A DNA stretch of 64,000 bases from an uncultured Candidatus Peribacteria bacterium (GTDB taxonomy: Bacteria > Patescibacteriota > Gracilibacteria > Peribacterales > Peribacteraceae), in NCBI GenBank assembly GCA_964633955.1, contig CAZWIA010000002.1:8026-72025 (forward strand), read 5' to 3'. The notes beneath the pieces are model-generated. The model did not search any database and was not told the origin of the DNA. It saw nothing but the letters and a program-made list of their open reading frames with translations. This document shows positions 5,605-62,822 of this stretch, one piece after another; position 1 is the stretch's first letter, and each line of letters begins with the position of its first letter. The position numbers and the translations under genes were made by a program.

Positions 5605-5672
5605 GAGTTACGGGTTACGAGTCACCAGTCACGAGTTGGAACCCGTAACGCGTACCTTCAAACTTGTAACTG
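5605..5672. repeat. heptamer-array hairpin (GTTACGR flavour) downstream of cysS
   Basis: Units GTTACGG GTTACGA GTCACCA GTCACGA. The stem is GTTACGGGTT (5607-5616) with AACCCGTAAC (5640-5649). A trailing AACTTGTAACTG follows. Confidence 0.65.
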
Positions 5673-14270: not shown

Positions 14271-14350
14271 GATCAGTGGTCAGTGGTGAGTGGTCAGTCA
14301 TGGAGAAACGTATTGTTTCCTGACCACTGATCACTGACCACTCGCCACTG
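14271..14350. repeat. heptamer-array hairpin (CAGTGGT flavour) between the XRE and recJ stops
   Basis: The left arm CAGTGGT CAGTGGT GAGTGGT CAGTCA pairs with the right arm TGACCACTGATCACTGACCACTCGCCACTG. The right arm encodes the last 5 codons of recJ. Confidence 0.75.
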
Positions 14351-16112: not shown

Positions 16113-16165
16113 GTACGAGGTCCCAACGTTGAACCTCGTAACCTTGTAACGTTGTAACTGCAAGG
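16113..16165. repeat. heptamer-array element (TGTAAC flavour) with an 8-bp stem
   Basis: TACGAGGT (16114-16121) pairs with ACCTCGTA (16133-16140), followed by ACCTTGTAAC GTTGTAAC TGCAAGG. Confidence 0.6.
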
Positions 16166-17823: not shown

Positions 17824-17893
17824 GAGGACTCAAAGGATGTAAAAGACTTAAGGGATTCGTTCTTTTAGGTCTTTTGAGTCCCCTAAATCCCTC
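17824..17893. repeat. C-poor/G-poor inverted repeat in the divergent region upstream of dnaJ
   Basis: GGACTCAAA...AAAAGAC (17826-17848) pairs with GTCTTTTGAGTCC (17868-17882). An additional GGGATT/AATCCC pair is present. Confidence 0.55.
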
Positions 17894-20383: not shown

Positions 20384-20569
20384 GGCGGAGGGGAGGATAG
20401 CGCGAATCGATCCCCGTACAAATCGGATCTCTTCATCAACTGGAGTTATGAAGTATGAATTAAGAATCATGAGCCGTTTTTCTCTGCATAATTCGTCATT
20501 CATGATTCACGATTCTCACAAAGAAAGCCCCTCTTCCGAGGAGCCCTCTTTTGGTTCTACCGCGACCAA

Positions 20570-24747: not shown

Positions 24748-25881
24748 ATGGAGACGCGGAATATGGTACAATGGCAGGAAATGCACATCGAAATCCGCAT
24801 GCCCCGTCCGATCGTCTCTCTCCTGGCCGTGAGCGCGGTTGCGGGCGGCCTGGCCTGGATGCAGTGGCAGGATAACGCGCCGGCGGAATCCGCGGACTAC
24901 CGGGCGCAGCTGGTTCAAGCGCGCGCGAGCGCGCCGGTGGCAACGGCGCAACCCGCCGTGCCGCCTCCCTACGCGGCGTACCCCATGGTCATGCCGTTCC
25001 CCATGCCTTACCCCGTGGCCATGGGCCAGGCAAATCCGGCGGCGCAACCCTCCGGCTGGCCGTTCCCCCCGGCCGCCGCGACGGCAGCCGTGGTACACAC
25101 GGATCCATCCGCGCCCGCAGACACCGTCACCCGCACCGTGCAGGCGGAGTCCGCGCGGGCCGCAACTGAGCTCTCCATGCGGGAGCGGATTGTGGAGCAG
25201 GAGATCCTGGCCCGCCGGCAGGAGCTGCTCACGGAGCAAGTGAAGCTCCTGGAAACGGAGATGCAGGCTCGCGGCACGCTGACGCCGGAGGAACGTGAAG
25301 CGTTCCTGGGAAGCGTACGAGCGCTCACGTCGCTCCTGGCAGACCGCTTGGGATCAGAGAAGCTCCTCAAGGAATCCCTGGCCCAGATGTGGCAGGCGGA
25401 AGCGGAGGCACAGCGCATCACGCAGGACGACCGGGGACCGGCTGCCTCCGCGCTCCGCCTGCGCTGGCCGGTGGATCCGCTGTCCGGCATCTCCGCCTAC
25501 TTCCGGGATCCGTCCTACTTCAAGCGCTTCAAGTTCCAGCATGACGCGGTGGATATCCCCGTTCTGCAGGGCAGCCCCGTGCGCGCGGCAACAGACGGCA
25601 TCGTGGTGAAAGTGCGGGACAACGGCTACGGCTACAACTCCATCACGCTCCAGCACGCCGGCGGCGTCTCAACGCTCTACGGCCACGTGACCCGCTTCCT
25701 GGTTTCTGAGGGGGACGCGGTGAAGGCCGGCCAGCCGATCGCGCTCTCAGGCGGCCGCCCCGGCACGCTTGGCGCCGGACTCATGACCACCGGCCCGCAC
25801 GTGCACTTCTCCGTCTTCAAGCGCGGCCAGGCGGTGGACCCGCTGCCGTTCCTGCCGCCCGTGAGCCAGTACGTGAAGTAG
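24748..25881 (+). CDS. M23-family peptidoglycan endopeptidase with N-terminal TM segment and coiled-coil region
   Basis: The C-terminal LytM core is HDAVDIPV..GSPVRAATDGIVV...GYGYNSITLQHAGGVSTLYGH...GDAVKAGQPIA..G...TGPHVHFSV. Confidence 0.85.
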   Translation: METRNMVQWQEMHIEIRMPRPIVSLLAVSAVAGGLAWMQWQDNAPAESADYRAQLVQARASAPVATAQPAVPPPYAAYPMVMPFPMPYPVAMGQANPAAQPSGWPFPPAAATAAVVHTDPSAPADTVTRTVQAESARAATELSMRERIVEQEILARRQELLTEQVKLLETEMQARGTLTPEEREAFLGSVRALTSLLADRLGSEKLLKESLAQMWQAEAEAQRITQDDRGPAASALRLRWPVDPLSGISAYFRDPSYFKRFKFQHDAVDIPVLQGSPVRAATDGIVVKVRDNGYGYNSITLQHAGGVSTLYGHVTRFLVSEGDAVKAGQPIALSGGRPGTLGAGLMTTGPHVHFSVFKRGQAVDPLPFLPPVSQYVK

Positions 25882-25888
25882 CGGGCAG

Positions 25889-25945
25889 CGGTGAGCGATG
25901 AGCGATAGTGGTCAGTGGTTAGTGATTAGTGATTAGTAGCGAGCA
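25889..25945. repeat. one-armed heptamer array (AGTGRTY flavour) overlapping the dgt stop
   Basis: GTGAGCGAT GAGCGAT AGTGGTC AGTGGTT AGTGATT AGTGATT AGTAGCG. The last units encode ...ATNH-stop of dgt on the minus strand. Confidence 0.6.
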
Positions 25946-27275: not shown

Positions 27276-27351
27276 CGAATATGGAATGCCGAATGTCGAC
27301 TGTGGATGCTTCCTCTGCCTCGACATTCCATATTCCACATGCAACATTCGG
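27276..27351. repeat. heptamer-array hairpin (GAATRTS flavour)
   Basis: The left arm GAATATG GAATGCC GAATGTC GAC pairs with the right arm TCGACATTCCATATTCCACATGCAACATTCGG. Includes the 9-bp core GAATGTCGA/TCGACATTC. Confidence 0.7.
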
Positions 27352-27358
27352 TCGTCCA

Positions 27359-28468
27359 TCACGCCGCGCAACCCAATTCCCGGTACGCCCGCTCCACGGC
27401 CTCCCGCATCCGCCCGCGAAACTGATCCGCATGGAACGGCCGCGCATGATGGCGGATGCGCTCCGGGTCAAACACCCGCTCTTCAAACCGGCCAATGGCA
27501 TCCGTCACGGCGTCCACGGTCTGCTCCGGGAAGAACACGCCCGTGATCCCGTCCTGCACCGTGTCCACCACGCCCCCGCGGCCGTAGGCGATGACCGGCG
27601 TGCCGCACGCCTGCGCCTCCATGGGGATGATGCCGGCATCCTCCAGCTGCGGCGTGAGGAGCGCCTTGGCCCGGCCGTAGAGGGACGGGAGCTCAACCTC
27701 CGGCACGTAGCCCAGGAATTGTACCGTGGGACCGGCCATGGCGCGGAGCCGCCGCTCGTCCTGCCCGGTTCCGGCAATCACCAGCGGGAAGCGGAGGGTA
27801 TTGGCGGCCCGGATGAGGAGATCAAACCGCTTGTAGGGCACCAGCCGGCCAATGGCCAGGTAGGCGCTCCGCTGCTCCATGGAGAGAAGCGGCACGCGGT
27901 AGAAGGCGTCCCCCGCCGGCGGCAGGATCACCTGGGCGTCCCGGGCGTAGGTGCGCCGGACGCGGTCGGCGCTCTCCGTGGAGTTGGCAAGGAAATGGTC
28001 CACCCGCGCGGCCGTGGTGAGATCCCAGCGCCTCAGCCGCTTGAGCTGCCGCCGGACCGTTCCGCGCAGGAGCCGCGGCACGCGGAAGTCCCGGAGGTAC
28101 TGCTCCTCCATCTCCCAGGCGTAGCGCATGGGCGTGTGGCAGTAGCAGACGTGGAGGGCGTTTGGCGGCGGCACGATTCCCTTGGCCACCGCGTGGGAGG
28201 AACTGAGAATGACATCGAATCCCCGCAGATCGATCCCCTCCACCGCCCGCGGCATGAGCGGCAGGAGGACCTGGTGGTTGCCGGTCAGGCGGTACAGCCG
28301 CTGCAGGGGCGTGACGCGGATGTCCCGATCGGCCAGCGGCCCGAGCGCACGCGGCCGCGCCACCGTGGTGAAGAGCGGGGCTTCCGGCCAGAGAGCCGTC
28401 CATTCCCGCACGGCGTGCTCCGCTCCGCCGTAGACCGTGAGCCAATCGCAGACGATCGCCACGCGCAT
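27359..28468 (-). CDS. GT4-family (GT-B fold) glycosyltransferase
   Basis: 369 aa. N-terminal MRVAIVCDWLTVYGGAEHAV and a C-terminal GTGQDE...E.FG..P.EAQACGTPVIAYGRGG core. Confidence 0.85.
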   Translation of the reverse strand: MRVAIVCDWLTVYGGAEHAVREWTALWPEAPLFTTVARPRALGPLADRDIRVTPLQRLYRLTGNHQVLLPLMPRAVEGIDLRGFDVILSSSHAVAKGIVPPPNALHVCYCHTPMRYAWEMEEQYLRDFRVPRLLRGTVRRQLKRLRRWDLTTAARVDHFLANSTESADRVRRTYARDAQVILPPAGDAFYRVPLLSMEQRSAYLAIGRLVPYKRFDLLIRAANTLRFPLVIAGTGQDERRLRAMAGPTVQFLGYVPEVELPSLYGRAKALLTPQLEDAGIIPMEAQACGTPVIAYGRGGVVDTVQDGITGVFFPEQTVDAVTDAIGRFEERVFDPERIRHHARPFHADQFRGRMREAVERAYRELGCAA

Positions 28469-28514: not shown

Positions 28515-28570
28515 GGTGACGAGGGCCCTTGTCACCGTTTATCCCCTTTCCGCCCTTGTCGCCCTTCCGT
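28515..28570. repeat. GGTGACAAGGG-flavour palindrome plus a CCCTT-unit array
   Basis: GGTGACGAGGG|CCCTTGTCACC followed by GTTTATCCCCTTTCCGCCCTTGTCGCCCTTCCG. Same flavour as the arms at 40982 and 41531. Confidence 0.6.
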
Positions 28571-32882: not shown

Positions 32883-32948
32883 GGCAAGTGATCAGTGGTG
32901 AGCATGACGCCGTTCTGATCACTGGCCACTCACCACTGATCACTTGCC
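32883..32948. repeat. heptamer-array hairpin with a perfect 20-bp stem (AGTGRYN flavour)
   Basis: GGCAAGTGATCAGTGGTGAG (32883-32902) is the exact reverse complement of CTCACCACTGATCACTTGCC (32929-32948). It starts 2 nt after the stop codon. Confidence 0.8.
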
Positions 32949-36409: not shown

Positions 36410-36456
36410 CGGAATTGAGAATGGATAATTGAAAATTGAGAATTATGGAAGTTGAG
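36410..36456. repeat. 47-nt C-free heptamer array in the gatC-gatA spacer
   Basis: AATTGAG AATGGAT AATTGAA AATTGAG AATTATG GAAGTTG AGA. There is no cytosine from 36410 to 36456. Confidence 0.75.
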
Positions 36457-36510
36457 ACGGTGCCGACTTCGGATGTCGCGTACACATTGTCCATCGTCCA
36501 TGATCAAGTA

Positions 36511-36810
36511 TCAATTTCCATGAGCGGAGGGCGTCTGGATCTGCCGTTCCACCACGGGCAGCGGACTTGTGGCCAGGAGCGCGTCCGTGTCCACCTGGGT
36601 GGACCGGAGTTCGTCCGGCCGGAGACTGTTGCTGAGCCCGGTGACCTGGATCGCCCCCGCCGCCTGGGACGTATCCACCTCCCCCAGCATCTCCACGTAC
36701 CCCAGGATCTTGGTCAGCTCCTCCGCGTAGCGGGAGAGCTCCTCCTCACTGAGGCGGAGACGCGCCAGCTTGGCGATATGCCGGACTTGGTCGGGGGAGA
36801 GGGGGGCCAT
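36511..36810 (-). CDS. gatC: Glu-tRNA(Gln) amidotransferase subunit C
   Basis: VRHIAKLARLRLSEEELSRYAEELTKILGYVEML..VDT. Confidence 0.9.
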   Translation of the reverse strand: MAPLSPDQVRHIAKLARLRLSEEELSRYAEELTKILGYVEMLGEVDTSQAAGAIQVTGLSNSLRPDELRSTQVDTDALLATSPLPVVERQIQTPSAHGN

Positions 36811-36842
36811 GGGACCAGGGGCAGGATAGGGTGATTTGCGCC

Positions 36843-36912
36843 AGAATCAAGAATCATGAGTGATGCATCATGAGAAGCCGCTATTCATAATTCCTGACTC
36901 ATAATTCATACT
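36843..36912. repeat. heptamer-array inverted repeat (AATCATGAG flavour) between gatC and rnpA
   Basis: AGAATCA AGAATCA TGAGTGA TGCATCA TGAGAAG pairs with CTATTCATAATTCCTGACTCATAATTCATACTT. Confidence 0.6.
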
Positions 36913-39669: not shown

Positions 39670-40983
39670 ATGATCGATCTCCAAGATCTCCGCGCCCGGC
39701 CGGATACGTACCAGGACGCCGCCAACAACAAGGGGGTGAAGGTGAGCATCAAGGACATCCTGCAACTTGATGAGAAGCGGCGGGAGCTGCTCCCCAAGGT
39801 GGAGGAGATGCGCGCTAGGAAGAACAAGGTGAGCAAGATGGTGCCAAGCTTGAAGGACATGGAGCGGGAAGTGGCCATCAAGGACATGAAAGCGTTGGAC
39901 GGTGAACTGAAGATCCTGGAAGCCGAACTGGGCAAGGTGGAGGCGGAGTGGCAGGCCAACCTGCTCCGGATTCCCAACCTCCCGCTGCCGGAAGTGCCCG
40001 TGGGTCACAGTGAAGAGGAGAACAAGGTGATCCGCACCGTGGGCACGCCCAGGCAGTTCGATTTCCCGGTGAAAGACCACGTGGCCATTGGGAAGGAGCT
40101 GGACATCATTGATGTGGAGCAGGCGGCCGTGGTGAGCGGCAGCCGGTTTGCGTACTTGAAAGGCGACGCCGTGCGGCTGCAGATGGCGCTCATCCAGTTT
40201 ACGTTCGATACCCTGGGGAATGAGGCGATCTTGAAAGAGGTAGCCAAGCGAGCCAAGTTGCGCGTCTCCACCAGGCCCTTTGTGCCGGTGCTGCCGCCGG
40301 TCATCATGCGGCGGGACGTGATGGAGCGTATGGACCGCCTGGAGCCGGAAGACCAGCGCTACCTGCTGCCGGAGGACGAGCAGGTGCTGGTGGGTTCCGC
40401 AGAGCATACGCTGGGGCCGTACTATATGGAGAAGACGCTGGATGTGGCGGAACTGCCTATCCGTTTCATCGGGTACTCCACCGCCTTCCGGCGGGAAGCC
40501 GGCACTTACGGCAAGGACATGGGCGGCATCCTGCGCGTGCACCAGTTTGATAAGCTAGAGATGGAGAGCTTCACCACGGCCGAGGCCGGCGCGGACGAGC
40601 AGCGGTTCATCGTGGCGCTGCAGGAGCACATGGTTGAGCAACTGGCGATCCCGTACCGCGTCCTGCAGAAGTGCACGTGGGACATCGGCAAGCCCAACGC
40701 CAACGGCCTGGATATCGAGTGCTGGATCCCGGCGCAGAACACGTACCGTGAGACGCACACGAGTGACTACATGACGGACTACCAGGCCAGGCGCCTCAGC
40801 ACGCACTACAGGACGGCCAGCGAGGAGCGCAAGCTCGTGCACATGAACGACGCCACGGCCTTCGCCATCGGCCGAACCATCATCGCCATCCTGGAGAACC
40901 ACCAGAGCGCCGACGGCAGCGTGACGATCCCGGAAGTCCTGCGACCGTACATGGGGGGGCAGGAGAGGATTGCGAAGCGGTGA
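39670..40983 (+). CDS. serS: serine--tRNA ligase
   Basis: N-terminal coiled-coil arm and class II core (FRREAGTYGKDMGGILRVHQFDKLE, TAFAIGRTIIAILENHQ). Confidence 0.95.
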   Translation: MIDLQDLRARPDTYQDAANNKGVKVSIKDILQLDEKRRELLPKVEEMRARKNKVSKMVPSLKDMEREVAIKDMKALDGELKILEAELGKVEAEWQANLLRIPNLPLPEVPVGHSEEENKVIRTVGTPRQFDFPVKDHVAIGKELDIIDVEQAAVVSGSRFAYLKGDAVRLQMALIQFTFDTLGNEAILKEVAKRAKLRVSTRPFVPVLPPVIMRRDVMERMDRLEPEDQRYLLPEDEQVLVGSAEHTLGPYYMEKTLDVAELPIRFIGYSTAFRREAGTYGKDMGGILRVHQFDKLEMESFTTAEAGADEQRFIVALQEHMVEQLAIPYRVLQKCTWDIGKPNANGLDIECWIPAQNTYRETHTSDYMTDYQARRLSTHYRTASEERKLVHMNDATAFAIGRTIIAILENHQSADGSVTIPEVLRPYMGGQERIAKR

Positions 40984-41038
40984 AAAGGGCAGAAAGGGTG
41001 AAAGGGGTGAAAACGATACAGGGGTGACAAGGGTGGGA
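40982..41038. repeat. left (C-poor) arm flanking four-helix-bundle gene 1
   Basis: GAAAAGGGCA GAAAGGGT GAAAGGGGT GAAAACGATACAGGGGT GACAAGGGT GGG. It starts at the serS stop codon. Confidence 0.65.
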
Positions 41039-41165
41039 CGCGTGAGGTGTTCAATGAGGGGACGGAACGTCACTTTATGCATGTAGAAGCGACAAACATC
41101 ATATCGCCGGAAGGATTGCGATCCTCGTACCTTCCGCTCTGTGGCTGGGCCTTTACGATGGAACT

Positions 41166-41519
41166 ATGCAGCGGCCGCATCAGAAACTCATCGTCTGGCA
41201 GGAGGCGTACTCGCTCTGCCTGCTGATTTACAAGACAACAAAGAAATTTCCACCGGAGGAACGGTATGCGCTCTGCGATCAGCTACGCAGAGCGGCTTCC
41301 AGCGTGCCGACCAACATTACAGAAGGGAATTATCGAACGACGCAAAAGGACCGGCGGCACTTCTTTGTCATTGCACACTCTTCTCTAGAAGCACTTCACT
41401 GCGAGATTCTACTCGCAAACGATTTGGGCTACATCAGCACGGAGGAGTTCGCATGTATCGATAGCCATATCGGACGTGTCGGCTTCCTCCTGAATCGGCT
41501 AATGAAAACAATCAAATAA
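41166..41519 (+). CDS. four-helix-bundle protein (23S rRNA intervening-sequence protein / Avd-like family)
   Basis: LIVWQEAYSLCLLIYKTTKKFPPEERYALCDQLRRAASSVPTNITEG is the family signature. Lower GC by eye. Confidence 0.85.
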   Translation: MQRPHQKLIVWQEAYSLCLLIYKTTKKFPPEERYALCDQLRRAASSVPTNITEGNYRTTQKDRRHFFVIAHSSLEALHCEILLANDLGYISTEEFACIDSHIGRVGFLLNRLMKTIK

Positions 41520-41530
41520 AGCTCTACCAT

Positions 41531-41605
41531 ATCCTTGTCACCCTTTTAACCCTTTTAACCCTTTTCGCCCTTTCCGTCCTTTCCACCCTTTTCTTTTCGC
41601 CCTCG
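41531..41605. repeat. right (G-poor) arm flanking four-helix-bundle gene 1
   Basis: ATCCTTGTCACC CTTTTAACC CTTTTAACC CTTTTCGCC CTTTCCGTC CTTTCCACC CTTTTC is an imperfect reverse complement of 40982-41038. Confidence 0.65.
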
Positions 41606-41623
41606 TTCCCCCGACCGCCCCTC

Positions 41624-42730
41624 ATGCGCTTCCTCTTCACCCGCTTCCCGCTGGAATCCGCCTTTGGCGGAGCGGAGGTGCAGACCTTGTCCCTCATGGA
41701 CGGGCTGCGCGACCGGGGCCACTCCGTATCCTTCCTGGGCAGCTGCCAGACGCTCCTGGCGGAATGCAAGAAGCGCGGCATTGTAGCGACCGAGCGGGAC
41801 ATTGGCCCGCCGCCGGTGACCAAGCGGGACGCCGTGAGTTTCCTGTGGCGGCGGAGCGCCATGCGGCGAGCGCTCCGGGAGGAGATTGCGCGGCTGGGAT
41901 CCCAGGACGCGGTCCTCATGCTGAGCCTGACGGAGAAACTGCTCCTCACCCACCCGCTCCACGCTTCCGGCACGCGCGTGGTATGGGTGGAGCACGACCG
42001 GGTGGGCCGGTGGCTGCGTCGCAATCCTTGGTTGCCGCAGTTGCGGCGCATGAGCGCCTACGCCACCACGGTGACCGTCTCCGGCCTCAGCCGGCGGATC
42101 TACCTGGATCTGGGATTCCCCCCGGAACGCGTGACGGTGATCCCGAACGGCATAGACCTCCGGCGATTCCCACCGTCTGTCCGGCCACGCACGGGCGGCG
42201 TGCCCCACGTGGGGTGCGTGGCGCGGCTGTCTTGGGAGAAGGGCGTGGACGTGCTCATAGGCGCGCTCGGCCGGGTATCCGGCGTGCGGGCCACCATTGT
42301 GGGCGGAGGGCCGGAGGAGGGCGCGATCTCACGGCAGATCACGGAGGAGAAGCTGGCCGGACGGGTGAAGATCATAGCGCCCGGGCGCGATCTCCGGGAC
42401 TTCTACCAGTCGATCGACCTGCTAGTTCTCCCATCCCGCGATCACGATCCCTTTGGTCTGGTGGCGGCGGAAGCCATGGCGCTGGGGATTCCGGTAATTG
42501 TCACGGACGCGTGCGGCATAGCGGAATACTGCTCCTCTGGCACGGACGCGGTGGTGGTGCCAGCGGGTTCCGTGAGCGCGCTGGAAGAGGCGATCGCGCA
42601 CCTGCGCGACCAGCCGCACTTGCGCCATGCGATCGGCGAAGCCGGACAACTGCGGGCCCGGCAGGCGTTCGGCGCGGAGCACATGGTGGACGCCTATGAG
42701 AAACTCCTCCAAAGGGATGCGCGCCGGTGA
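41624..42730 (+). CDS. GT4-family glycosyltransferase
   Basis: MRFLFTRFPLESAFGGAEVQTL N-terminus and a C-terminal E.FGLV..EAMALGIPVIVTD core. Confidence 0.85.
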   Translation: MRFLFTRFPLESAFGGAEVQTLSLMDGLRDRGHSVSFLGSCQTLLAECKKRGIVATERDIGPPPVTKRDAVSFLWRRSAMRRALREEIARLGSQDAVLMLSLTEKLLLTHPLHASGTRVVWVEHDRVGRWLRRNPWLPQLRRMSAYATTVTVSGLSRRIYLDLGFPPERVTVIPNGIDLRRFPPSVRPRTGGVPHVGCVARLSWEKGVDVLIGALGRVSGVRATIVGGGPEEGAISRQITEEKLAGRVKIIAPGRDLRDFYQSIDLLVLPSRDHDPFGLVAAEAMALGIPVIVTDACGIAEYCSSGTDAVVVPAGSVSALEEAIAHLRDQPHLRHAIGEAGQLRARQAFGAEHMVDAYEKLLQRDARR

Positions 42731-42752: not shown

Positions 42753-45284
42753 ATGAAGCACGCCACATCGCTCATCGCGATCCTTTCCACGGTCGCCACG
42801 CTCGGTAGCGCTCCGTTGGACCAATTGCCGCTCGCGCCCCATTTTCCTCTTGCTCACGTCTCACATCTCACATCTCAGGTCTCAGGTCTCGCCGCCTCCC
42901 GCCAAGCAGCCGGCACCAACGGCCTGCATGTCTTTGCCGCCCCCATCGATGCGCTCAGTGTGACGCTCAGGGAGAAAGACCAGACCGCGCAGGTGCGCGC
43001 GTTTGACGGCACTGCATGGAGCGCCTGGGAGGAACTCCGGGTGGAGGATGAACAGGACCCAACGCTCATGGAATCGAACCTCGTGGTGTTCCAGGTACCC
43101 GTGGGCACGGTCGAATTCCGGAGCAGCGCACAGTTCACAGTGAATCCCATCCGGGTCTCAGGCGCGCCTGCGTCCTACCGCGTGGCAGCCACTCAAGATG
43201 TAGGGACGCCGCGCATCCTCTCCCGCCGGGACTGGGGGGCGGATGAGAGCCTGAGGCTCAGAAACGGCCACGCGCCCAGCCGCAGCGACGACGACATCAC
43301 GAGCGAGGTGAGCGGCAACGGCGCGCTCACTGCCCGCCAGCGGGAGTGCCTGGATGCGATTGAAGGCTATCCCCAGGATTTCAAGCGCGCCAAGAAGCGG
43401 GTGGATGAGCTGAACGGCAAACCGCTCCTGTGGCCGCAGGAGTACTCGCCGTCCATCGGGCTCCTGGTCGTGCACCACACCGCTGTTCGGTCGGACGGCG
43501 ATACACGGCCTGGCGCGGAGCGCATGCGCGCGCTGTATCAGTACCATGCCGTGAACCGCGGCTGGGGGGACATTGGCTACCACTACGTGATTGACGATGA
43601 CGGCCGGATCTACCAAGGCCGTGCCGGCGGCGACCGAGTGGTGGGCGGCCACGCGTACTGCAATAACGTGGGGACACTGGGCATCGCACTCATGGGGAAC
43701 TTTGAGGTAGAGGAGCCCACCCAGAAGCAGGTAAAGAGCCTGCAGTGGCTGCTCCAGCACCTGGCGGAGCAGGAGGAGATAGACCTGCAGACGGACGTCA
43801 CGTACCATGGCAAGTCCCTCCCGCGCATCGTGGGCCACCGGCAGCTCCTGACTACTGACTGCCCCGGCTACTACCTCTACGAGGCCATGGACCAGCTGCG
43901 CAGCAACGTGGCAGCCGGACGGATAGACAAGGCGCTCGTGTTCCCGGAGGGCGCGCAGCGCATGAGTCAGAAGCAGGACAAGCCGCGGGCAACGATCGCC
44001 ATAGGCCAGAAAGGGACGTTCTTCTTTCAGGACGCAGACTACGTGGGGCGGCCGGGCGGGGACGTGCTCTTCCCCGTGCGGTTTTTGGCCAGCCAGGCGC
44101 TCAGCCAGCGCAGCGTGATTGGCAAGCTCACCCGCTCAGACGAGCGCCTGGCGGTATACCTGGTAGGCGAGCAGGAGGCCGTGCGCCTCCGGGACAACGT
44201 GCTGCTGCCGCAGTTCCTGCGCAAGGGGGACACCACCACGCTCTACATCCGCGTGGTCCTGCCGCCGGATCCGGGAACGTACCAGCTCACCATAGATTCC
44301 CTCCGCTACACGCTCAAGGCGGAGGGCCGCCGCGTGCGCACCGCCACGGCCGTGGGCCAGAGGCGGCTCTCCCGCCAGGCCGGCCAGACGCTTGGTTCTC
44401 AACCGAATGGCGGCAGCGCCTCTCCCGCCGCGCCGGCACCCACGGCGCCGGACAACGGCCCCCTGGTCCGTATCCTGCTGAGTTACGAGTCCAACGATCC
44501 GGATCATCCCGACCGCGCGTTCCTGGACGCGCCGCAGGGCGCCAGACTGGACGGCAAGCCGGTCAGCGGCACCGTGGTCTTTGAGAAGAAGGGCGATACG
44601 TGCGAGGCGAGCAACGAGCTGGGCTTCCTGGCTGGCGGTACGCCCCGCCTCCACCCGCACGGCAAGATCCTCACCGTAGAGAGTTGGAATTCCGCCTTTA
44701 ACCAGTTCCGCGGCACGATCGAATGCCGGATTGTGGACGGACGCTTAGCGCTCATCAATGAACTCCCCATGGAGGACTACCTGCGGGGACTGGCGGAGGA
44801 GCCGGATTCAGAGCCCTATGAGAAGCAGCGCGCGTTCGCGATTGCGGCGCGCACCTACGCGCAGTGGTACCTGAGCCCCCAGAACCGCAAGTTCCCCGGC
44901 AAGCCGTATGATGGATCAGACAGTCCGGCCGTGTTCCAGAAGTACTCCGGCTACGCCTATGAACTGAAACATCCGAGCTGGCTCAAGGCGCTCGAATCCA
45001 CCAGGCACCAAGTGCTCCTGAAGGACGGCCAGCTCATCAAGCCGCCGTACTTCTCACAGAGTAACGGCCGGACCCTCAGCCCCGCCGAAGCCGGCTGGAA
45101 GACGTTCCCGTTTGCGGAGGTCTTTGCGAGCAAGCCGGACCCCTGGTGCCAGGGCATGGAGCAGCGCGGGCATGGCGTTGGCATGAGCGGCTGCGGCGCG
45201 GAAGCCCAGGCGGAGGAGGGCAAGACCGCGGAGGAGATTTTACAATACTATTATACGGGGATCACAATCGGACGGGTGAGATGA
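42753..45284 (+). CDS. fusion protein: signal peptide, N-acetylmuramoyl-L-alanine amidase (Amidase_2/PGRP-type) domain, SpoIID/LytB domain
   Basis: The amidase part has LLVVHHTAV, GYHYVIDDDGRIYQGR, GGHA..N..TLGIALMGNF and GHRQL..TDCPG. The SpoIID part has MEDYLRGLAEEP, QKYSGY, PPYFSQSNGRT and GHGVGMSGCGA. Confidence 0.85.
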   Translation: MKHATSLIAILSTVATLGSAPLDQLPLAPHFPLAHVSHLTSQVSGLAASRQAAGTNGLHVFAAPIDALSVTLREKDQTAQVRAFDGTAWSAWEELRVEDEQDPTLMESNLVVFQVPVGTVEFRSSAQFTVNPIRVSGAPASYRVAATQDVGTPRILSRRDWGADESLRLRNGHAPSRSDDDITSEVSGNGALTARQRECLDAIEGYPQDFKRAKKRVDELNGKPLLWPQEYSPSIGLLVVHHTAVRSDGDTRPGAERMRALYQYHAVNRGWGDIGYHYVIDDDGRIYQGRAGGDRVVGGHAYCNNVGTLGIALMGNFEVEEPTQKQVKSLQWLLQHLAEQEEIDLQTDVTYHGKSLPRIVGHRQLLTTDCPGYYLYEAMDQLRSNVAAGRIDKALVFPEGAQRMSQKQDKPRATIAIGQKGTFFFQDADYVGRPGGDVLFPVRFLASQALSQRSVIGKLTRSDERLAVYLVGEQEAVRLRDNVLLPQFLRKGDTTTLYIRVVLPPDPGTYQLTIDSLRYTLKAEGRRVRTATAVGQRRLSRQAGQTLGSQPNGGSASPAAPAPTAPDNGPLVRILLSYESNDPDHPDRAFLDAPQGARLDGKPVSGTVVFEKKGDTCEASNELGFLAGGTPRLHPHGKILTVESWNSAFNQFRGTIECRIVDGRLALINELPMEDYLRGLAEEPDSEPYEKQRAFAIAARTYAQWYLSPQNRKFPGKPYDGSDSPAVFQKYSGYAYELKHPSWLKALESTRHQVLLKDGQLIKPPYFSQSNGRTLSPAEAGWKTFPFAEVFASKPDPWCQGMEQRGHGVGMSGCGAEAQAEEGKTAEEILQYYYTGITIGRVR

Positions 45285-45290
45285 GGAGCA

Positions 45291-45382
45291 CGATCGAATG
45301 TGGAATGTGGAATATCGAATGTCGAACGATCGTACGCAAGGATGCTGATCGATATTCCACATTCGATATTCGACATTCGATC
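45291..45382. repeat. heptamer-array hairpin (GAATGTS flavour) between convergent genes
   Basis: The left arm GAATGTG GAATGTG GAATATC GAATGTC GAACGATCG pairs with the right arm GATCGATATTCCACATTCGATATTCGACATTCGATC. Confidence 0.75.
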
Positions 45383-47364: not shown

Positions 47365-47710
47365 GCGGCCAGGGGCACAGGGCCGCTTCTACTTCTTCAC
47401 AGGTTTCCCGCATCACGCGTATCACCTCCTGGTCCACCCGTTCCGCCGGCAGCTCTTCCACGCAACGGGAGAGGGCCATCCGCACGCCCATGAGGAACAT
47501 TTCCCGGTCCGCCCGCGTGAGGAGCCGGTCGGGATTGGGCGCGGTGGATTCAAAGTAGCCGTGCACAGCCAGCGCGGTCCCCACGCGTGAACCGTACTCC
47601 AAGAGCCACTGCGCAAAAGGCGTATCGCGACCGGCTTCCCGCAGGCGGCGCGCGGCCGTCTGCTCCGTCTGCTCCAGCATCTGCCCCAGAGTGACGCTTG
47701 CGGGCATCAT
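47240..47710 (-). CDS. hypothetical helical protein between zwf and pgl (low-complexity tail overlaps the zwf 3' end)
   Basis: ORF only. Plausible composition from MMPASVTLGQMLEQ. Its last ~40 codons overlap zwf. Confidence 0.4.
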   Translation of the reverse strand: MMPASVTLGQMLEQTEQTAARRLREAGRDTPFAQWLLEYGSRVGTALAVHGYFESTAPNPDRLLTRADREMFLMGVRMALSRCVEELPAERVDQEVIRVMRETCEEVEAALCPWPPRTTGTPAPQSTCPPPPGRAIPPRTDGAASPACPNALAADQ

Positions 47711-47747
47711 GGGGGTATTGTACTCCCTCACCCGCTGGCCGTAAGGT

Positions 47748-48437
47748 GTGACCATGCCCGTGCAGGTGATCTACATGGATGCGCCCGACCAACTGGTGGA
47801 ACGCGCCACGCGGTCGCTGGAAGCGGAGATCAGCCGCGTCATCCGCCAGAAGGACCACTGTTCCCTGGGCCTCTCCGGCGGCTCCACGCCCCTGCCCGTC
47901 TATGGACAGCTGGCCAGGTCCGACCGGATCGACTGGAGCCGCGTTACGCTCTTCCCCCTGGATGAGCGGTTCGTGCCGACCGCGCATCCGGACAGCAACC
48001 AGGGCGCCATCCTGCGCGCCCTGAGTGCGGCAGATCCCCAGCCGCACACCCTCTTCCCGGATACCAGCCTCCAGCTGGACGAGTGTCTGCTGCAGTACCG
48101 CATGCAGCTCCGGCCGCTCCTGCAACAGCAGGGGCTGGACGTGGCCGTACTGGGCATGGGGACGGACGGCCACACCGCCTCGCTCTTCCCGCCGCTCCCG
48201 GCGGAAGCATTCTCCGATCTCCTGGTCATCCCCGCGCGCACCGACCATCACGCGGTGTCCCAGCGCCTGAGTGTCACGCTCCCCGTGCTCCAGTCCGCCC
48301 GCTTCCGCCTGCTGCTCCTGTCTGGTCCGGACAAGGCGGAGACGTGGGAACGGATGATGAAGAGCGACGTACGCCTCCGCCGCTGGCCCCTGCAGGGCTT
48401 GCTGGACGAACGCACCACCGTCATGATCGCCGCATGA
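47748..48437 (+). CDS. pgl: 6-phosphogluconolactonase
   Basis: LGLSGGSTP, FPLDERFVP and VLGMGTDGHTASLFP motifs. Confidence 0.88.
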   Translation: MTMPVQVIYMDAPDQLVERATRSLEAEISRVIRQKDHCSLGLSGGSTPLPVYGQLARSDRIDWSRVTLFPLDERFVPTAHPDSNQGAILRALSAADPQPHTLFPDTSLQLDECLLQYRMQLRPLLQQQGLDVAVLGMGTDGHTASLFPPLPAEAFSDLLVIPARTDHHAVSQRLSVTLPVLQSARFRLLLLSGPDKAETWERMMKSDVRLRRWPLQGLLDERTTVMIAA

Positions 48438-48470
48438 GCAAGGCGAGCTGACCACCAGCCAAGCCGTAAT

Positions 48471-48488
48471 GACGCCGCATGCGGCGTC
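48471..48488. terminator. perfect 18-nt palindrome between the pgl and Fic gene stops
   Basis: GACGCCGCATGCGGCGTC. Confidence 0.55.
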
Positions 48489-48549
48489 TCGGTACGCGCT
48501 CATAGACGGGTGGGATCCAAGGAAGGCAGTAACGCCCCTGTGACCAACT

Positions 48550-49686
48550 CTACCTTGAGAGAATTTGCAGATAGTCCGCAAAAACAAATAGCCGGTTTCT
48601 CCTCTTGCCTGTGATTTCATGCAAAATTTTCTGATCGATGAATCGCCTCGTGAGATCGTTTGCGGATTTCGTCGTGAGGCCGGTCGCCTGCTCCACATCC
48701 TTTACGGTCAAAACGGGCTGAGTGAACAGCTGCTGTAGGAGTTTTTGCCCAGCTGTCACCTGTCTGCCCATCTTGGGGAGACGCTCGGTCATAAGAGCAT
48801 CTCGCAGTGCCATAATCTCCTGCAAGGTCCGAGCCGCATGCAGCGCAGTCTGCTCAACTGCATCCAAGAAGAACCGAACCCAACTCGTTAAATCGTTTTT
48901 TTCGCGCACCAGGGTCAAGCGGTCAAAGTACAATGTCTTATGCTTCTCAAAGTAGTCCGACGTATAGAGCAACGGAGCGTCGATCATCCCGAAGTGCATC
49001 AAAGACAAGGTGATGAGCAATCTTCCAATTCTTCCATTGCCATCAAGAAACGGGTGAATCGTTTCAAACTGATAATGGCAAATTGCCACCCTGACCAGAT
49101 TCGGCATTGCAATCGATTCATTCTGCATGAAGCGTTCCAGATCCGAGAGAAGATCCGGGAGATGCTCCGCGCTCGGCGGAATGAACATCGCATCATTCAA
49201 CGTGGCGCCACCGATCCAGTTTTGGCTTTTCCGAAATTCTCCCGGCTCTTTTCTCTCACCCCTTCCGTGAGAGAGTAAAATGCGATGCGACTCACGAATC
49301 AGCCGGCTGGAAAGAGGCAGCGCCTGGAGAGAACGCAGTGAGTGATCCATCGCCCTGATGTACTGATGCACCTCTAACCAAGTATCACGCTCTTCAGGAG
49401 CGATATCAGCCTCATCGGTGAATGCCTGCTCCATATTCGTTCGCGTACCTTCAATCCGGCTAGAAGTTACGGCCTCTTTTCGCACATACGATCGAATGAA
49501 CCGATTCATGTCCGGTATAAGCCGGGCAAAGGAGTTCAGTTCCCCTAATCGCAAAGAGGCACTTTCCAGCTTGCGCTGAATGAGAGCATCACTGATCGTC
49601 CAATCATGGTTAACTGGCTCAGGCAAAAAGTATTCATACTGGAAACCCTTTCGCTTTTTGCCAGCAATAAAATCCCGTAGATCCAT
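48550..49686 (-). CDS. fic: Fic-family protein (class II: N-terminal inhibitory helix, Fic core, C-terminal wHTH)
   Basis: HPFLDGNGRIGRLL core, an upstream SSRIEG motif ([S/T]xxxE[G/N]), and a C-terminal LTVKDVEQATGLTTKSANDLTRRF. Lower GC by eye. Confidence 0.9.
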   Translation of the reverse strand: MDLRDFIAGKKRKGFQYEYFLPEPVNHDWTISDALIQRKLESASLRLGELNSFARLIPDMNRFIRSYVRKEAVTSSRIEGTRTNMEQAFTDEADIAPEERDTWLEVHQYIRAMDHSLRSLQALPLSSRLIRESHRILLSHGRGERKEPGEFRKSQNWIGGATLNDAMFIPPSAEHLPDLLSDLERFMQNESIAMPNLVRVAICHYQFETIHPFLDGNGRIGRLLITLSLMHFGMIDAPLLYTSDYFEKHKTLYFDRLTLVREKNDLTSWVRFFLDAVEQTALHAARTLQEIMALRDALMTERLPKMGRQVTAGQKLLQQLFTQPVLTVKDVEQATGLTTKSANDLTRRFIDQKILHEITGKRRNRLFVFADYLQILSR

Positions 49687-49783
49687 TAGTTTAGTTTACC
49701 CCCTTAAAGTAAATTAGAGAAATCCATAATTTACCTTCAGAAATAATCAATAGAATTGGCGTTTTACATACAAATACAGGGCC

Positions 49784-50334: not shown

Positions 50335-51831
50335 ATGCTCACGCAGCTCACGTCCTTCGCCACGATCGGCCTCACCTGCGAACGCATCACGGTGGAAGTG
50401 GGCACCGCGCCGGGGGAATCCAAATTCTTCATTGTGGGTCTGGGGGACACGGCCGTGCAGGAGAGCAAGCACCGGGTGCTCCTGGCCATCCGCCAGAGCG
50501 GCTTCCGGCGGATGGGATCCCGCGTCATCACGGTAAACCTGGCGCCGGCGGACCTGCGCAAGGTAGGCCCGCGGTACGATCTGCCCATCGCCCTGGGCCT
50601 CCTGATCGGCTGCGGACAGGTCACGGTCCCGGAGGAAGCGCTCACGGATACGGCATACTTGGGGGAGCTGGCGCTGGATGGAACGCTGCGCCACGTCTCC
50701 GGCGTGCTGCCCGCCACCATCGCCGCGCGGAAGGCAGGCATCCGCCGGATCGCCGTCCCCGCGGTGAACGCGCCGGAAGCTATGCTGATTTCCGGTATAG
50801 AGGTGATTGCGGCGGAGAGCCTCCCGCAGCTCATCCGCGTCCTGAACGGCGAGGAGCCTGTGCCAGCGGTGCGTTCTCACCGGCAGACATCTTCCCTCCC
50901 CGGCGGAGTGGTGGACTTTGCGGACGTGCGCGGCCAGGAGCAGGCCAAGCGGGCGCTGACCATTGCGGCCGCGGGCGGTCACAACGTGCTCCTCTCCGGC
51001 ACGCCGGGCTCCGGCAAGACGCTCCTGGCCCGGGCCTTCCGCGGCATCCTGCCGCCCCTCTCTGAGGAAGAAGCCATAGAGGTCACGCAGATCTACAGCA
51101 TCGCCAACCTCCTGCCCAAAGACGCGCCCCTGCTCACGGATCGCCCCTTCCGCGTGGTGCACCACACGGCCAGCGGCGTGTCCATCGTGGGCGGCGGGCA
51201 GGTGCCGGGACCCGGAGAGATCAGCCTTGCCCACAAGGGCGTCCTCTTCCTAGATGAGCTGGCGGAGTTCCCCACGCAGGTGCTGGAAGTGCTCCGCCAG
51301 CCGCTGGAGGACCGCACCATCACCATCACGCGCGCGCAGGGCGCGGTCACGTTTCCGGCGGACTTCATCTTGGTCGCCGCCATGAATCCGCCGCAGTTCT
51401 CCGCCGGCGGCGCGCAGCGGATCCGGCAGCGGATCTCCGCGCCGCTCCTGGACCGCATTGACCTGACCGTAGACGTCCAGGCGGTGCCGATCGCAGACCT
51501 GCAGGCGCCGCCAGCCCGGAGATCCGACAGCTCATCGGAACTGCGGGCCAAGGTGGAACAGGCCCGCATCAGGCAGCACGAGCGGTTTTCCGGACTCCCC
51601 ATCCTGACCAATCGGGAGATGGGTGTGAGGGAGATCGACCAGTTTTGTCCGCTGGACCAGGCATCGGAGCGGATCCTCAAGCAAGCAACGGAGCGGCTTG
51701 GGCTCTCCGCGCGGGGTTACCATAGGATGGTGAAAGTGGCTCGGACCATCGCGGATTTGGAGGACAGCCATGCCATCCAGATGCAGCACGTGGCAGAAGC
51801 GCTGCAGTACAGGCAGAACGTGACGGGGTGA
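50335..51831 (+). CDS. comM: ComM/YifB Mg-chelatase-like AAA+ protein
   Basis: Lon-like N-domain, Walker A GTPGSGKT, GVLFLDELAEF, and a C-terminal RGYHRMVKVARTIADLE. Confidence 0.9.
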   Translation: MLTQLTSFATIGLTCERITVEVGTAPGESKFFIVGLGDTAVQESKHRVLLAIRQSGFRRMGSRVITVNLAPADLRKVGPRYDLPIALGLLIGCGQVTVPEEALTDTAYLGELALDGTLRHVSGVLPATIAARKAGIRRIAVPAVNAPEAMLISGIEVIAAESLPQLIRVLNGEEPVPAVRSHRQTSSLPGGVVDFADVRGQEQAKRALTIAAAGGHNVLLSGTPGSGKTLLARAFRGILPPLSEEEAIEVTQIYSIANLLPKDAPLLTDRPFRVVHHTASGVSIVGGGQVPGPGEISLAHKGVLFLDELAEFPTQVLEVLRQPLEDRTITITRAQGAVTFPADFILVAAMNPPQFSAGGAQRIRQRISAPLLDRIDLTVDVQAVPIADLQAPPARRSDSSSELRAKVEQARIRQHERFSGLPILTNREMGVREIDQFCPLDQASERILKQATERLGLSARGYHRMVKVARTIADLEDSHAIQMQHVAEALQYRQNVTG

Positions 51832-51832
51832 T

Positions 51833-51865
51833 GAGTTACCAGTTTGAAGTTACGAGTTACAAGTT
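51833..51865. repeat. left arm flanking four-helix-bundle gene 2 (AGTTACR heptamers)
   Basis: GAGTTACC AGTTTGA AGTTACG AGTTACA AGTT. It ends 1 nt before the ATG at 51866. Confidence 0.8.
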
Positions 51866-52276
51866 ATGGATATGCAACATTCCACCTCGACTACAGCACA
51901 GATGCTGAATAAAGCCGGCTTCCGATCTCTTTTTTCTTGGCAGGAGGCAAAGAAATTAAGTCTGGATGTTTACGAGATAACCAAATCCTTTCCCGCCAGC
52001 GAGCGATTCCACCTGGTGGATCAACTGAGAAGGGCATCGAGCTCAGTCATGTCGAATTTGGCCGAAGGCTCAGCGATGTCGACACGCGATCATCAGAATA
52101 GCTTCTATGTTCGGGCAAAGGGATCAGCCATCGAGGTCGACAACTTCATAGAGCTTGCCTTTCCGCTTGGTTATATTACAGAGAATGAATATCATAGCCT
52201 GAGCAACAGTTACATCCGGCTTTCGGGGACGATCGAGCGCCTGATTCGATCGCCGCGTAGACACCTCCGGACCTGA
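51866..52276 (+). CDS. four-helix-bundle protein (23S rRNA intervening-sequence protein / Avd-like family)
   Basis: FSWQEAKKLSLDVYEITKSFPASERFHLVDQLRRASSSVMSNLAEG. Lower GC by eye. Confidence 0.85.
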   Translation: MDMQHSTSTTAQMLNKAGFRSLFSWQEAKKLSLDVYEITKSFPASERFHLVDQLRRASSSVMSNLAEGSAMSTRDHQNSFYVRAKGSAIEVDNFIELAFPLGYITENEYHSLSNSYIRLSGTIERLIRSPRRHLRT

Positions 52277-52309
52277 ACTCGTAACTTGTAACTTGTAACT
52301 CGTAACTTC
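52277..52309. repeat. right arm flanking four-helix-bundle gene 2
   Basis: AACTCGTAACTTGTAACTTGTAACTCGTAACTT. Positions 52290-52308 are the exact reverse complement of 51847-51865 (19/19). Confidence 0.8.
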
Positions 52310-62059: not shown

Positions 62060-62132
62060 CACAATAACCCCCTTTCCCATCCGTGGGAAAGGGGGTCTGG
62101 TAGCGCGCGGCTCGATCGCACTGTGCTGCGCT

Positions 62133-62822
62133 TCATGCCGGGCGGCGGAGACGCCACGTGCCCAGGCCCAGCAGGCCCAGCGCGAGGGCGATGACGGTAG
62201 GCGGCGCTGGGACCGCGCCGCCGCGGGTGGCCGCGGGATCCCAGCTCTGGATCGCTGGGGCCGCCGCCGTCCAGCTGGGCCCGCGGAAGACCGCAAAGTC
62301 CGCCAGGAACGGTTGCGAAAGATCCAGCGTAGGTGATCCTGGAAAGAGGGTCACCAGGGTTGGCAGCGGGAAGACGACGATGTTGCCGTCCTCCAGAAAC
62401 CACGGCCGCCCGGCGTACGCGGACAGGAGTTCCCAGTTCACCGCGTCGCGGTAGTACTGGGTCCCGAAGGGTTCGGTATTGTCTACATGCAGCTGCGGCG
62501 GTGCCGCAGCGCCCAGGAACAACCCTGGAAACCCGAACATGTCCGCCAGCTGGGAAGCGGGCGAGTTGGCCCCCACGCCGCCGGCAACCGGATCCCGGAT
62601 GCCGACGACGAGGAAGGTGTTGTCCGTCAGCCCATCGATCCTGGCTGCCACGAACGGCGTGGCGCCGTGGACAGCCCATGTTTCCACAATGGTCTGAGTC
62701 TGACCCGGCACCGTGTAGCCGCCGGGCACCGGGATGCCGGGGCCGGTGATGAACCCGGCCTGGACATGGGAACCGACCATCAGGGCGCAGAGCGCCCACG
62801 CCATTGTCTGCCACTTCTTCAT
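62133..62822 (-). CDS. secreted protein with a PEP-CTERM-like C-terminal sorting signal
   Basis: Signal peptide MKKWQTMAWALCALMVGSHVQA. The C-terminus is AVPAPPTVIALALGLLGLGTWRLRRPA (Pro motif, Gly/Leu TM, Arg cluster). AAGGGAGA Shine-Dalgarno sequence. Confidence 0.6.
   Translation of the reverse strand: MKKWQTMAWALCALMVGSHVQAGFITGPGIPVPGGYTVPGQTQTIVETWAVHGATPFVAARIDGLTDNTFLVVGIRDPVAGGVGANSPASQLADMFGFPGLFLGAAAPPQLHVDNTEPFGTQYYRDAVNWELLSAYAGRPWFLEDGNIVVFPLPTLVTLFPGSPTLDLSQPFLADFAVFRGPSWTAAAPAIQSWDPAATRGGAVPAPPTVIALALGLLGLGTWRLRRPA

Follow-up and report, generated by a model that had tools for sequence, protein, structure and literature searches.

The 64-kb window analysed here (the whole stretch of 64,000 nucleotides, nt, from contig CAZWIA010000002.1 of an uncultured Candidatus Peribacteria bacterium) harbours a dispersed family of tandem arrays with short units, arranged at many loci as two complementary arms, and two such pairs of arms enclose a gene for a four-helix-bundle protein of family PF05635. 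Comparison with homologous genes from metagenomes establishes that the arms belong to the gene and not to the site, and that the type of repeat unit passes down with the protein lineage, in genomic contexts that bear no relation to each other. On balance, the loci are probably one modular element, occurring as cassettes of the intervening-sequence (IVS) type and as derivatives or partners devoid of an open reading frame (ORF), which would be processed by RNase III and whose array is possibly the cognate site of the protein. Such an element would comprise, as we judge with some confidence, an array of a purine-rich, C-poor unit of 7-9 nt (typically 4-5 copies), followed by either a short loop or a PF05635 gene of ~120 amino acids (aa), and then the complementary array.

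Array-bracketed four-helix-bundle genes

The two gene-carrying cassettes of the window are made up of the following features.

40974-41038 (+): cassette 1, 5' arm; C-poor 9-mer array of GAAAGGGKT with an inner inverted repeat
41166-41519 (+): four-helix-bundle gene 1 (hb1), 117 aa; PF05635 (E = 1.4e-31) and TIGR02436
41530-41605 (+): cassette 1, 3' arm; G-poor 9-mer array of ACCCTTTTM
51828-51866 (+): cassette 2, 5' arm; NAGTTAC array reaching into the ATG
51866-52276 (+): four-helix-bundle gene 2, 136 aa; PF05635 (E = 6.5e-30) and TIGR02436
52276-52309 (+): cassette 2, 3' arm; GTAACTY array beginning at the last base of the stop codon

Members of PF05635/TIGR02436 are annotated as "23S rRNA intervening sequence protein", "four helix bundle protein" or S23p. 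The two proteins share 39% identity and each cassette has its own unit; cassette 1 lies between serS and a GT4 glycosyltransferase gene, and cassette 2 between a Mg-chelatase-like gene and a gene without assigned function. The cassettes are compositionally foreign, the G+C content at third codon positions (GC3) being 0.61 in gene 1 and 0.57 in gene 2 versus 0.83-0.87 in neighbouring genes. Pairing of the arms is predicted to yield a duplex of -76 kcal/mol in cassette 1 and -33 kcal/mol in cassette 2. Both cassettes appear to have ORF-less kin in the window: the locus at 28515-28570 has in common with cassette 1 the inner inverted repeat GGGTGACRAGGG / CCTTGTCACC together with 45 nt of the 9-mer right arm, and the locus at 16113-16165 aligns to the stop codon and right arm of cassette 2, with each unit one base longer.

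Metagenome contigs were searched with an alignment of 32 homologues, which gave 80 loci encoding proteins with 35-52% identity to the window protein. Arrays are concentrated around these genes, at a density of 3.52 per kb in the 200-nt gene flanks as compared with 0.31 per kb in the rest of the same loci. The upstream and downstream flanks of a gene are complementary to each other in 49 of 66 cases (74%), while complementarity to the flank of another locus was found in none of the 66. Control ORFs of at least 90 aa from the same loci had complementary flanks in 3 of 134 cases, the three being another PF05635 gene, a small amidase and one of no known identity. The arms are mostly polarised in the same sense (G exceeds C in 42 of 52 upstream arms and C exceeds G in 55 of 61 downstream arms), and the best period of the flanking arrays is 7 in 85, 8 in 21 and 9 in two, never 6 or 10, with a median of 4.3-4.5 copies and a mode of 4-5. 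The 3' arm begins a median of 2 nt past the stop codon. The cassettes are mostly placed downstream of a co-oriented gene, the upstream neighbour having the same orientation in 40 cases and the opposite one in four.

The unit follows the protein. When two units were scored as shared at a match of at least 6/7 or 7/8 after rotation, 85% of protein pairs with at least 75% identity had a unit in common, falling to 40% at 60-75% identity and 1% below 50%; similarity of the outer flanks was seen in merely 3 of 60 same-unit pairs. Since neutral flanks ought to be randomised by 60-80% protein identity, the unit is under a constraint tied to the protein. Further arrays within 2.5 kb of a cassette carry the unit of that cassette in 21 of 54 cases (0.96 expected), and a (C)AGT core recurs in 31 of 59 heptamer units (13.7 expected). 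In the family with the 8-mer AAGGRTTC, nothing beyond the arms and the ORF is conserved. The first 3' unit of this family includes the TGA stop together with the codons before it (CCTTGA), which couples the C-terminus of the protein to the repeat; the ORFs concerned are as follows.

L090, L091, L103, L105, L117, L131 and L137: AAGGRTTC-family ORFs with the 3' end inside the first 3' unit

The alignment profile matches the structure of the Xanthomonas S23p protein (PDB 2GSC) at E = 2e-35. Within the alignment, a set of near-invariant or invariant polar residues forms one motif (Q39, R41, R42, S46, N50, E53, G54 and Y89 in the numbering of the window protein), and this Q39-Y89 motif is a candidate ligand- or nucleic-acid-binding site, as judged from sequence conservation. 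As regards phage carriage, a Bacteroidales homologue searched against 50,697 phage records gave no tblastn match.

An earlier, sequence-only reading of this DNA had associated the arrays with four-helix-bundle genes. The association is far stronger and more general than could be told from the window; within it, the claim holds for 41166-41519 and 51866-52276, and fails for the ORF between the arrays at 36410-36456 and 36843-36912. That third candidate (36436-36834) was rejected, having no Pfam, NCBIfam or tblastn match; this position in fact holds gatC on the opposite strand (Pfam GatC).

Genes outside the four-helix-bundle family can also be bracketed, as three examples show. The gatC gene (36511-36810, minus strand) lies between weakly complementary arms (duplex -15 kcal/mol), and heptamer arms likewise enclose a gene for a 134-aa Amidase_2 protein (L088, 1291-1695, minus strand) and one for a 150-aa protein without family (L161, 4308-4760, plus strand). 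Alternative cargo therefore exists.

Array loci of the window

A lag-7 self-match scan found 14 period-7 arrays in the window, far above chance: 40 dinucleotide-preserving shuffles gave a mean of 0.45 and a maximum of two. Periods 4, 5, 8, 10 and 11 were without enrichment in the lag scan; periods 6, 9 and 12 were raised, which we attribute mostly to coding periodicity, and the period-9 arrays at 28544, 40984 and 41533 are members of the present family. Tandem Repeats Finder recovered period-7 arrays at nearly all loci of the sequence-only reading, and an inverted-repeat search paired their arms; together with direct reading, these confirmed that the tandem heptamers are real and lie where that reading had placed them. 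It had counted at least 14 loci, and ~17 are counted here, including two that it lacked (20440-20520 and 42853-42890). An assembly artefact is ruled out by the agreement of independent assemblies and by the same architecture in finished plasmid sequences. Two further samples yielded assemblies of 2354 and 1678 bases with 100% identity to the window over 40166-42519, in which the arms covered thus show no strain-level variation in copy number; the 2354-base assembly spans both arms of cassette 1, and the 1678-base one its right arm only.

The expected C/G skew of the arms is kept in 11 of the 12 paired loci, with G exceeding C in the left arm and C exceeding G in the right, and the remaining locus is a tie. 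Pooled left arms contain 34% G, 12% C and 66% purine, and pooled right arms 12% G and 33% C; the G+C content of the arms derived from these pooled fractions is ~46%, as compared with 63% for the window. Polarity is a real architectural constraint, in which the inward-pointing strand is always the purine-rich one. An inverted repeat is the same on either strand, and the polarity is thus uninformative about which strand is transcribed. The proposal that the C-poor arm acts as an all-frame stop barrier was rejected, as left arms contain stops in 0-3 frames (mostly 0-2), which is not above the right arms.

The claim that the unit differs at each locus was overstated. Several units do coexist; they recur, however, in about six families of one to four loci each (xAGTGRT, SGAATRT, NAGTTAC, GAAAGGGNN, GAATYAW and AYGTGAG), which together account for every locus. 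The view of the loci as one family with a common architecture and polarity stands, as does its separation from the single-consensus families of repetitive extragenic palindromes (REP), bacterial interspersed mosaic elements (BIME) or miniature inverted-repeat transposable elements (MITE), in that the loci have no one consensus and their arms are built as tandem arrays. Separation from MITEs is less clear-cut on other features: inverted arms are present, the copies are not near-identical, and inspection by eye showed no target-site duplication at the cassette ends. Apart from the two cassettes, the loci are as follows (no strand is assigned to them).

335-418: hybrid element within a FemAB-family coding sequence (CDS); left arm a CAGTGRT array, right arm an ACATTCG array, mutually non-complementary
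5605-5672: ORF-less hairpin, unit NAGTTAC (the family of the cassette at 51828-52309), just 3' of the end of cysS
14271-14350: type locus, ORF-less hairpin, unit CAGTGGT, between a convergent helix-turn-helix (HTH) protein gene (+) and recJ (-); folding energy -47 kcal/mol, z -8
16113-16165: asymmetric ORF-less element, right arm an 8-mer array of AACCTYGT
17824-17893: ORF-less hairpin, 9-10-nt units, divergent region upstream of dnaJ
20440-20520: ORF-less hairpin, TATGAAG / CATGATT family
25880-25945: single C-poor array, GAGCGAT and then TAGTGAT units, between convergent M23 peptidase and HD-domain genes
27276-27359: ORF-less hairpin, unit SGAATRT, between a glycosyltransferase gene and a minus-strand 6S RNA / HD gene
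28515-28570: ORF-less hairpin, kin to the cassette at 40974-41605, divergent intergenic region
32883-32948: ORF-less hairpin, perfect 20-bp stem, unit CAGTGRT, between convergent genes; z -7 to -9
36410-36456: single array, GAATTGA family; on the minus strand, the G-poor gatC-gatA spacer
36843-36912: imperfect hairpin, GAATCAT / ATAATTC family, upstream of gatC
42853-42890: single G-poor array of CTCACRT, 5.4 copies, in an amidase CDS
45291-45382: ORF-less hairpin, unit SGAATRT, downstream of the amidase gene in convergent arrangement; z -6 to -8

The type locus reads GATCAGTGGTCAGTGGTGAGTGGTCAGTCAT, loop, CTGACCACTGATCACTGACCACTCGCCACTG. Folding against shuffled controls gave strong structures at 14271, 32883 and 45291 (z -6 to -9), clear ones at 17824, 28515, 27276 and 36843 (z about -3 to -5 on at least one strand) and weak ones at 5605, 16113 and 20440. 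The suggestion of a long hairpin at every locus fails at the hybrid 335-418, which has no fold (z ~0), and at the single arms 25880-25945, 36410-36456 and 42853-42890, for which no complementary partner was found within 6 kb. Rfam at gathering score recognised two tRNAs and one 6S RNA in the window, with no rRNA and no match at any array locus. Only 45 nt separate the hairpin at 27276-27359 from the 6S RNA match (RF00013, 27075-27230, minus strand), whose 46.8 bits barely exceed the gathering score, 46.4.

The locations are as heterogeneous as had been described, extending from convergent and divergent regions to an operon spacer, CDS ends and a CDS interior. Four loci lie between convergent genes and three in divergent promoter regions; several occupy same-strand spacers, including the gatC-gatA spacer, and several follow directly past stop codons. 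Intrusion into coding sequence was confirmed at three loci. At 335-418, the element is a 28-codon in-frame insertion in the FemAB-family CDS, translated as 28 additional residues, and without it the Pfam score increases from 63.1 to 71.2 bits and the alignment runs uninterrupted. The array at 42853-42890 lies just past the apparent signal peptide of the amidase (judged by eye), and 25907-25945 supplies the final codons and the stop of the HD-domain gene.

The RecJ protein encoded beside the type locus has its closest relatives in Candidatus Peribacteria / Peregrinibacteria (43-52% identity), which places the window in a candidate-phylum bacterium without a genome of its species in the collection searched, and recJ-region loci of Peribacteria contain about one period-7 array per 10 kb, as compared with 0.43 in Clostridia loci under the same scan. 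Comparison of the orthologous spacer, which the sequence-only reading had recommended, revealed presence, absence and turnover of arrays: across 16 species, the convergent recJ/HTH spacer holds arrays of varied units in about half (by reading of the sequences), contains a loaded cassette in one (L011) and is array-free in at least three. The spacer looks like a permissive site that is occupied repeatedly and not like one conserved sequence. Further four-helix-bundle genes of related Peribacteria (L009, L015, L011 and L083) are array-bracketed in four of four cases, with a different unit in each, and three copies on Bacteroidales contigs are bracketed likewise.

Described systems and a proposed mechanism

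The closest described counterpart is the ORF-containing IVS of 23S rRNA genes. The IVS of Coxiella burnetii, 428 nt in helix 45, has a 28-bp terminal stem that is cut by RNase III in vitro, and it carries two to three tandem copies of GACAGAT (the number being strain-dependent) and a degenerate GACAGAA upstream of its S23p ORF; the structure of S23p from Xanthomonas shows a homopentameric ring, or toroid, built from four-helix bundles (PMC4990558). A similar arrangement was found on plasmid AZO_p2 of Azospirillum lipoferum 4B, the ~3.2-kb 23S rRNA gene of which (L173, 2684-5882) holds a four-helix-bundle ORF (L173, 3911-4237) about 1.2 kb from the 23S 5' end, with heptamer arms of GACAGAG/GACGGAG, near the Coxiella unit. 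The gene table of the plasmid, itself incomplete and without RNA genes, lists no feature at this ORF. The window cassettes and the IVS thus have in common a loop ORF of the PF05635 / S23p family, complementary termini with a stem of ~28-30 bp, tandem C-poor heptamers immediately 5' of the ORF (GACAGAT in Coxiella, PMC4990558; GACAGAG/GACGGAG in Azospirillum), variation in copy number and the occurrence of ORF-less versions. Unlike the IVS of Coxiella burnetii, Leptospira and Brucella, the copies of the window occupy positions between or within protein-coding genes and not helix 9, 25 or 45; there are many of them per 64 kb, mostly ORF-less, and several unit families occur together. The gene-carrying copies appear to be of the same kind as the ORF-containing 23S IVS, located outside rRNA, and it is on location that strict membership of the IVS class fails.

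The sequence-only reading had named the short tandemly repeated repetitive (STRR) sequences of filamentous cyanobacteria as the closest description. This was fair, as cyanobacterial four-helix-bundle genes do have such arrays, although the ORF-containing IVS is closer. STRR and other heptamer repeats resemble the window loci in their tandem 7-nt units, few copies per site, mostly intergenic position and several unit types per genome, and STRR differ in host (heterocystous cyanobacteria, here a candidate phylum) and in unit sequence. The window unit GTGGTCA is identical at 6/7 positions to STRR2, which we take to be TTGGTCA, and the STRR1 and STRR3 consensus sequences presumably also contain the (C)AGT core. 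Published heptamer repeats are treated as direct arrays, as opposed to the fixed-polarity complementary pairs of the window, which often surround a gene. Heptamer repeats are over-represented in several bacterial groups (PMC4692102, PMC4679880); examples are the TAACTGA repeats of Beggiatoaceae, with one inverted set among 170 (PMC4679880), and the G-rich GGGAATC / GGGGAYT of Xanthomonas and Anabaena (PMC4692102). The text of PMC4679880 makes no mention of 23S or four-helix, and that of PMC4692102 none of S23, intervening or four-helix.

Among plasmid records, the four-helix-bundle protein occurs mainly in cyanobacteria, and heptamer arms surround its genes in Nostoc punctiforme, Trichormus variabilis, Anabaena sp. 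90 and Calothrix. The gene also stands between cas6 and cas4 of CRISPR-Cas on pANA02 of Anabaena sp. 90 (L169, 386-754) and on pPg_01 of Pseudanabaena galeata (L170, 398-757), which implies that the cassette also lodges in defence-system operons. The arrays of the Pseudanabaena copy are as follows.

L170, 288-397: direct array of AAAGCTA, ~15 copies, upstream of the gene
L170, 758-870: direct array of AAAGCCA, ~10 copies, downstream of the gene

In its organisation, the system also recalls the pairing of REPIN hairpins with RAYT proteins: a single gene with its own hairpin-forming repeats, dispersed ORF-less intergenic hairpins of the same sequence, and the possibility of several protein-repeat pairs per genome. 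It departs from that pairing in the lack of a RAYT (Y1/HUH) gene, the bracketed genes being PF05635 or gatC, and in arms that are arrays of 7-9-nt units and not one palindromic consensus of 20-40 nt, with copies that are not near-identical. A functional analogy, implying no homology, can further be drawn with TRAP-type rings, in which a ring oligomer meets evenly spaced repeats; here a pentamer (PMC4990558, PDB 2GSC) would face ~4-5 units of 7-8 nt.

The mechanism that we envisage starts with transcription of the cassette within a host transcript, whereupon the arms would pair in the RNA into a stem of ~30 bp. By analogy with the IVS of Coxiella and other species, for which excision by RNase III is documented (PMC4990558), this enzyme would cut the stem and free the insert without disabling the RNAs on either side; this would account for the tolerance of the element within rRNA, in operon spacers and at gene ends. 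With less assurance, the array may be the cognate site at which the homopentameric toroid binds, one unit per subunit, a suggestion prompted by the 7-8-nt period, the ~5 copies and the protein-specific unit. ORF-less copies with the same unit might then be served in trans, as REPINs are by RAYT. Tentatively, and with rather less than even confidence, this may be generalised to the four-helix-bundle "IVS proteins" as a whole, which would recognise tandem heptamers by their sequence, each subunit of the pentamer reading one unit and each paralogue having its own cognate unit, much as TRAP reads triplets.

The coupling of arrays to PF05635 genes across phyla seems to be undescribed; a general gene-repeat link was not found in the literature searched, which included few subscription journals, beyond a local remark on the Coxiella heptamers. 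Its value lies in converting two old puzzles, the purpose of heptanucleotide repeats (STRR and kin) and the role of S23p proteins, into one testable system. PF05635 is a family of unknown function with homologues in cyanobacteria, Bacteroidales, an alphaproteobacterium and candidate-phylum bacteria, and the predictions are a cognate 7-8-nt unit for each paralogue, ~5 units per site and a stem that is a substrate for RNase III. "Intervening sequences" are not confined to rRNA, and for annotation, these hairpins, including the in-frame insertions in genes, are to be treated as element-derived and not as canonical T-tailed terminators. Should the proteins indeed be readers of the units, STRR, the Beggiatoaceae TAACTGA repeats, the G-rich heptamers of Xanthomonas and Nostoc and the stems of rRNA IVS would be the nucleic-acid half of one protein-repeat system, uniting heptamer repeats that have been described piecemeal over 35 years; that system would spread as a cassette, leave ORF-less partners and parallel RAYT/REPIN, with a ring protein that is not an enzyme at its centre.

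Weighing of alternative explanations

Several observations weigh against an RNase III-processed element of the IVS type. The window holds two loaded cassettes versus ~14 ORF-less loci, which are many for mere decay products, and the cognate genes of three unit families are absent from it. Four of its loci are single or hybrid arms, the Pseudanabaena arrays are direct and not inverted, and no mobility enzyme was identified. Mismatches in the stems show no G:U excess (35 of G:U type versus 31 of A:C type), a result that gives no signal of selection for wobble pairs at the RNA level and led to rejection of that idea. The order of unit variants is mirrored between the arms in none of 28 loci, and the window behaves alike; permuting this order in one arm does not lower complementarity, either in the 28 loci or in the window. 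Base-by-base palindromy of the arms was rejected for this reason, with the perfect 20-bp stem at 32883 as an exception. The lack of G:U bias and the permutation result together mean that the arms are arrays of the same unit in opposite orientation and not a palindrome selected as RNA. The complementarity hence fits a DNA-level or protein-binding constraint at least equally well, a purely RNA-structural reading is weakened, and the data favour a constraint on the unit itself (for example as a binding site), with the stem arising automatically.

The main rival is a mobile element acting at the DNA level, in which the arrays are multi-site terminal inverted repeats (as at the ends of Tn7 or Mu), the four-helix-bundle protein is an end-binding or mobility factor, the RNA hairpin is incidental and ORF-less copies are non-autonomous, mobilised in trans like MITEs or REPINs. 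This reading accommodates the mismatch and permutation results at least as well; also in its favour are the specificity of the unit to the protein lineage, the presence of gene and arms in unrelated contexts, the same-unit ORF-less copies close by, the turnover at the recJ spacer, the foreign GC3 of the cassettes and the in-frame insertions of arrays in coding sequence. We nevertheless consider it unlikely. No nuclease or recombinase fold can be recognised in a helical bundle of 120 aa, nor is there a transposase nearby; target-site duplications were not seen by eye at the ends of the two window cassettes, where no systematic search was made; the copies are old (proteins 39% identical) and none is identical, giving no sign of recent transposition; and the classical members reside in rRNA, where excision at the RNA level has been demonstrated (PMC4990558). 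Less probable again is the proposal that the hairpins benefit the host at RNA 3' ends, as terminators or stabilisers against exonucleases, that they grew by slippage, and that four-helix-bundle genes insert preferentially there. The four loci between convergent genes, those directly past stops, the very stable stems and the arrays in about half of the recJ/HTH spacers of 16 Peribacteria loci speak for it, and another termination signal may be in use, given that a consensus scan of 33-53 kb found nine canonical stem-plus-T-run terminators versus 11.7 expected in these 20 kb, none of them at the hairpins. Direct reading of the tails, however, showed no T-run after any hairpin. Combined with the three loci in divergent promoter regions and the three that touch coding sequence, this agrees with the sequence-only reading that a simple terminator role is insufficient; the locus in an operon spacer and the four loci unable to fold also count against 3'-end hairpins, which would leave the fixed 7/8-nt period, the polarity and the tracking of unit with lineage unexplained.

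An origin of the arrays as neutral heptanucleotide microsatellites of the STRR type, produced by polymerase slippage and without function or real gene link, is highly improbable. It would agree with the differing copy number among Coxiella strains (PMC4990558) and with the over-representation of heptamers in several bacterial groups (PMC4692102, PMC4679880), and it is contradicted by the complementary arm pairs of fixed polarity, by the bracketing of 74% of four-helix-bundle genes versus ~2% of control ORFs, by the retention of the unit (at least 6/7) at 60-80% protein identity where the DNA just outside the arms is unrelated, and by the excess of the (C)AGT core. Candidate-phylum bacteria are rich in diversity-generating retroelements, and the four-helix-bundle genes could be conceived as Avd-type accessories of these, with the arrays as template or target repeats. 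This idea, to which we attach the least credence of all, draws on weak matches to bAvd (PF22296, in hb1 only) and to the NCBIfam Avd model; NF033474, however, scores 37.8 and 18.2 bits versus a cut-off of 80, and the IVS-protein models match best. Furthermore, no reverse transcriptase occurred among the neighbouring genes scanned and no template or variable repeats were noticed by the cassettes, no systematic search having been made for either. The modular element with IVS-type cassettes and ORF-less derivatives or partners remains the reading that we prefer.

Two further features of the window lie apart from the array loci. A patch of low G+C content at 47500-49700 (0.556 versus 0.63 for the window) contains a Fic/DOC-family gene (48550-49686, minus strand) and an overlapping 382-aa ORF without a Pfam family, and may be a further foreign insertion. 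A very long ORF of 2383 aa occupies 55145-62296 on the minus strand.

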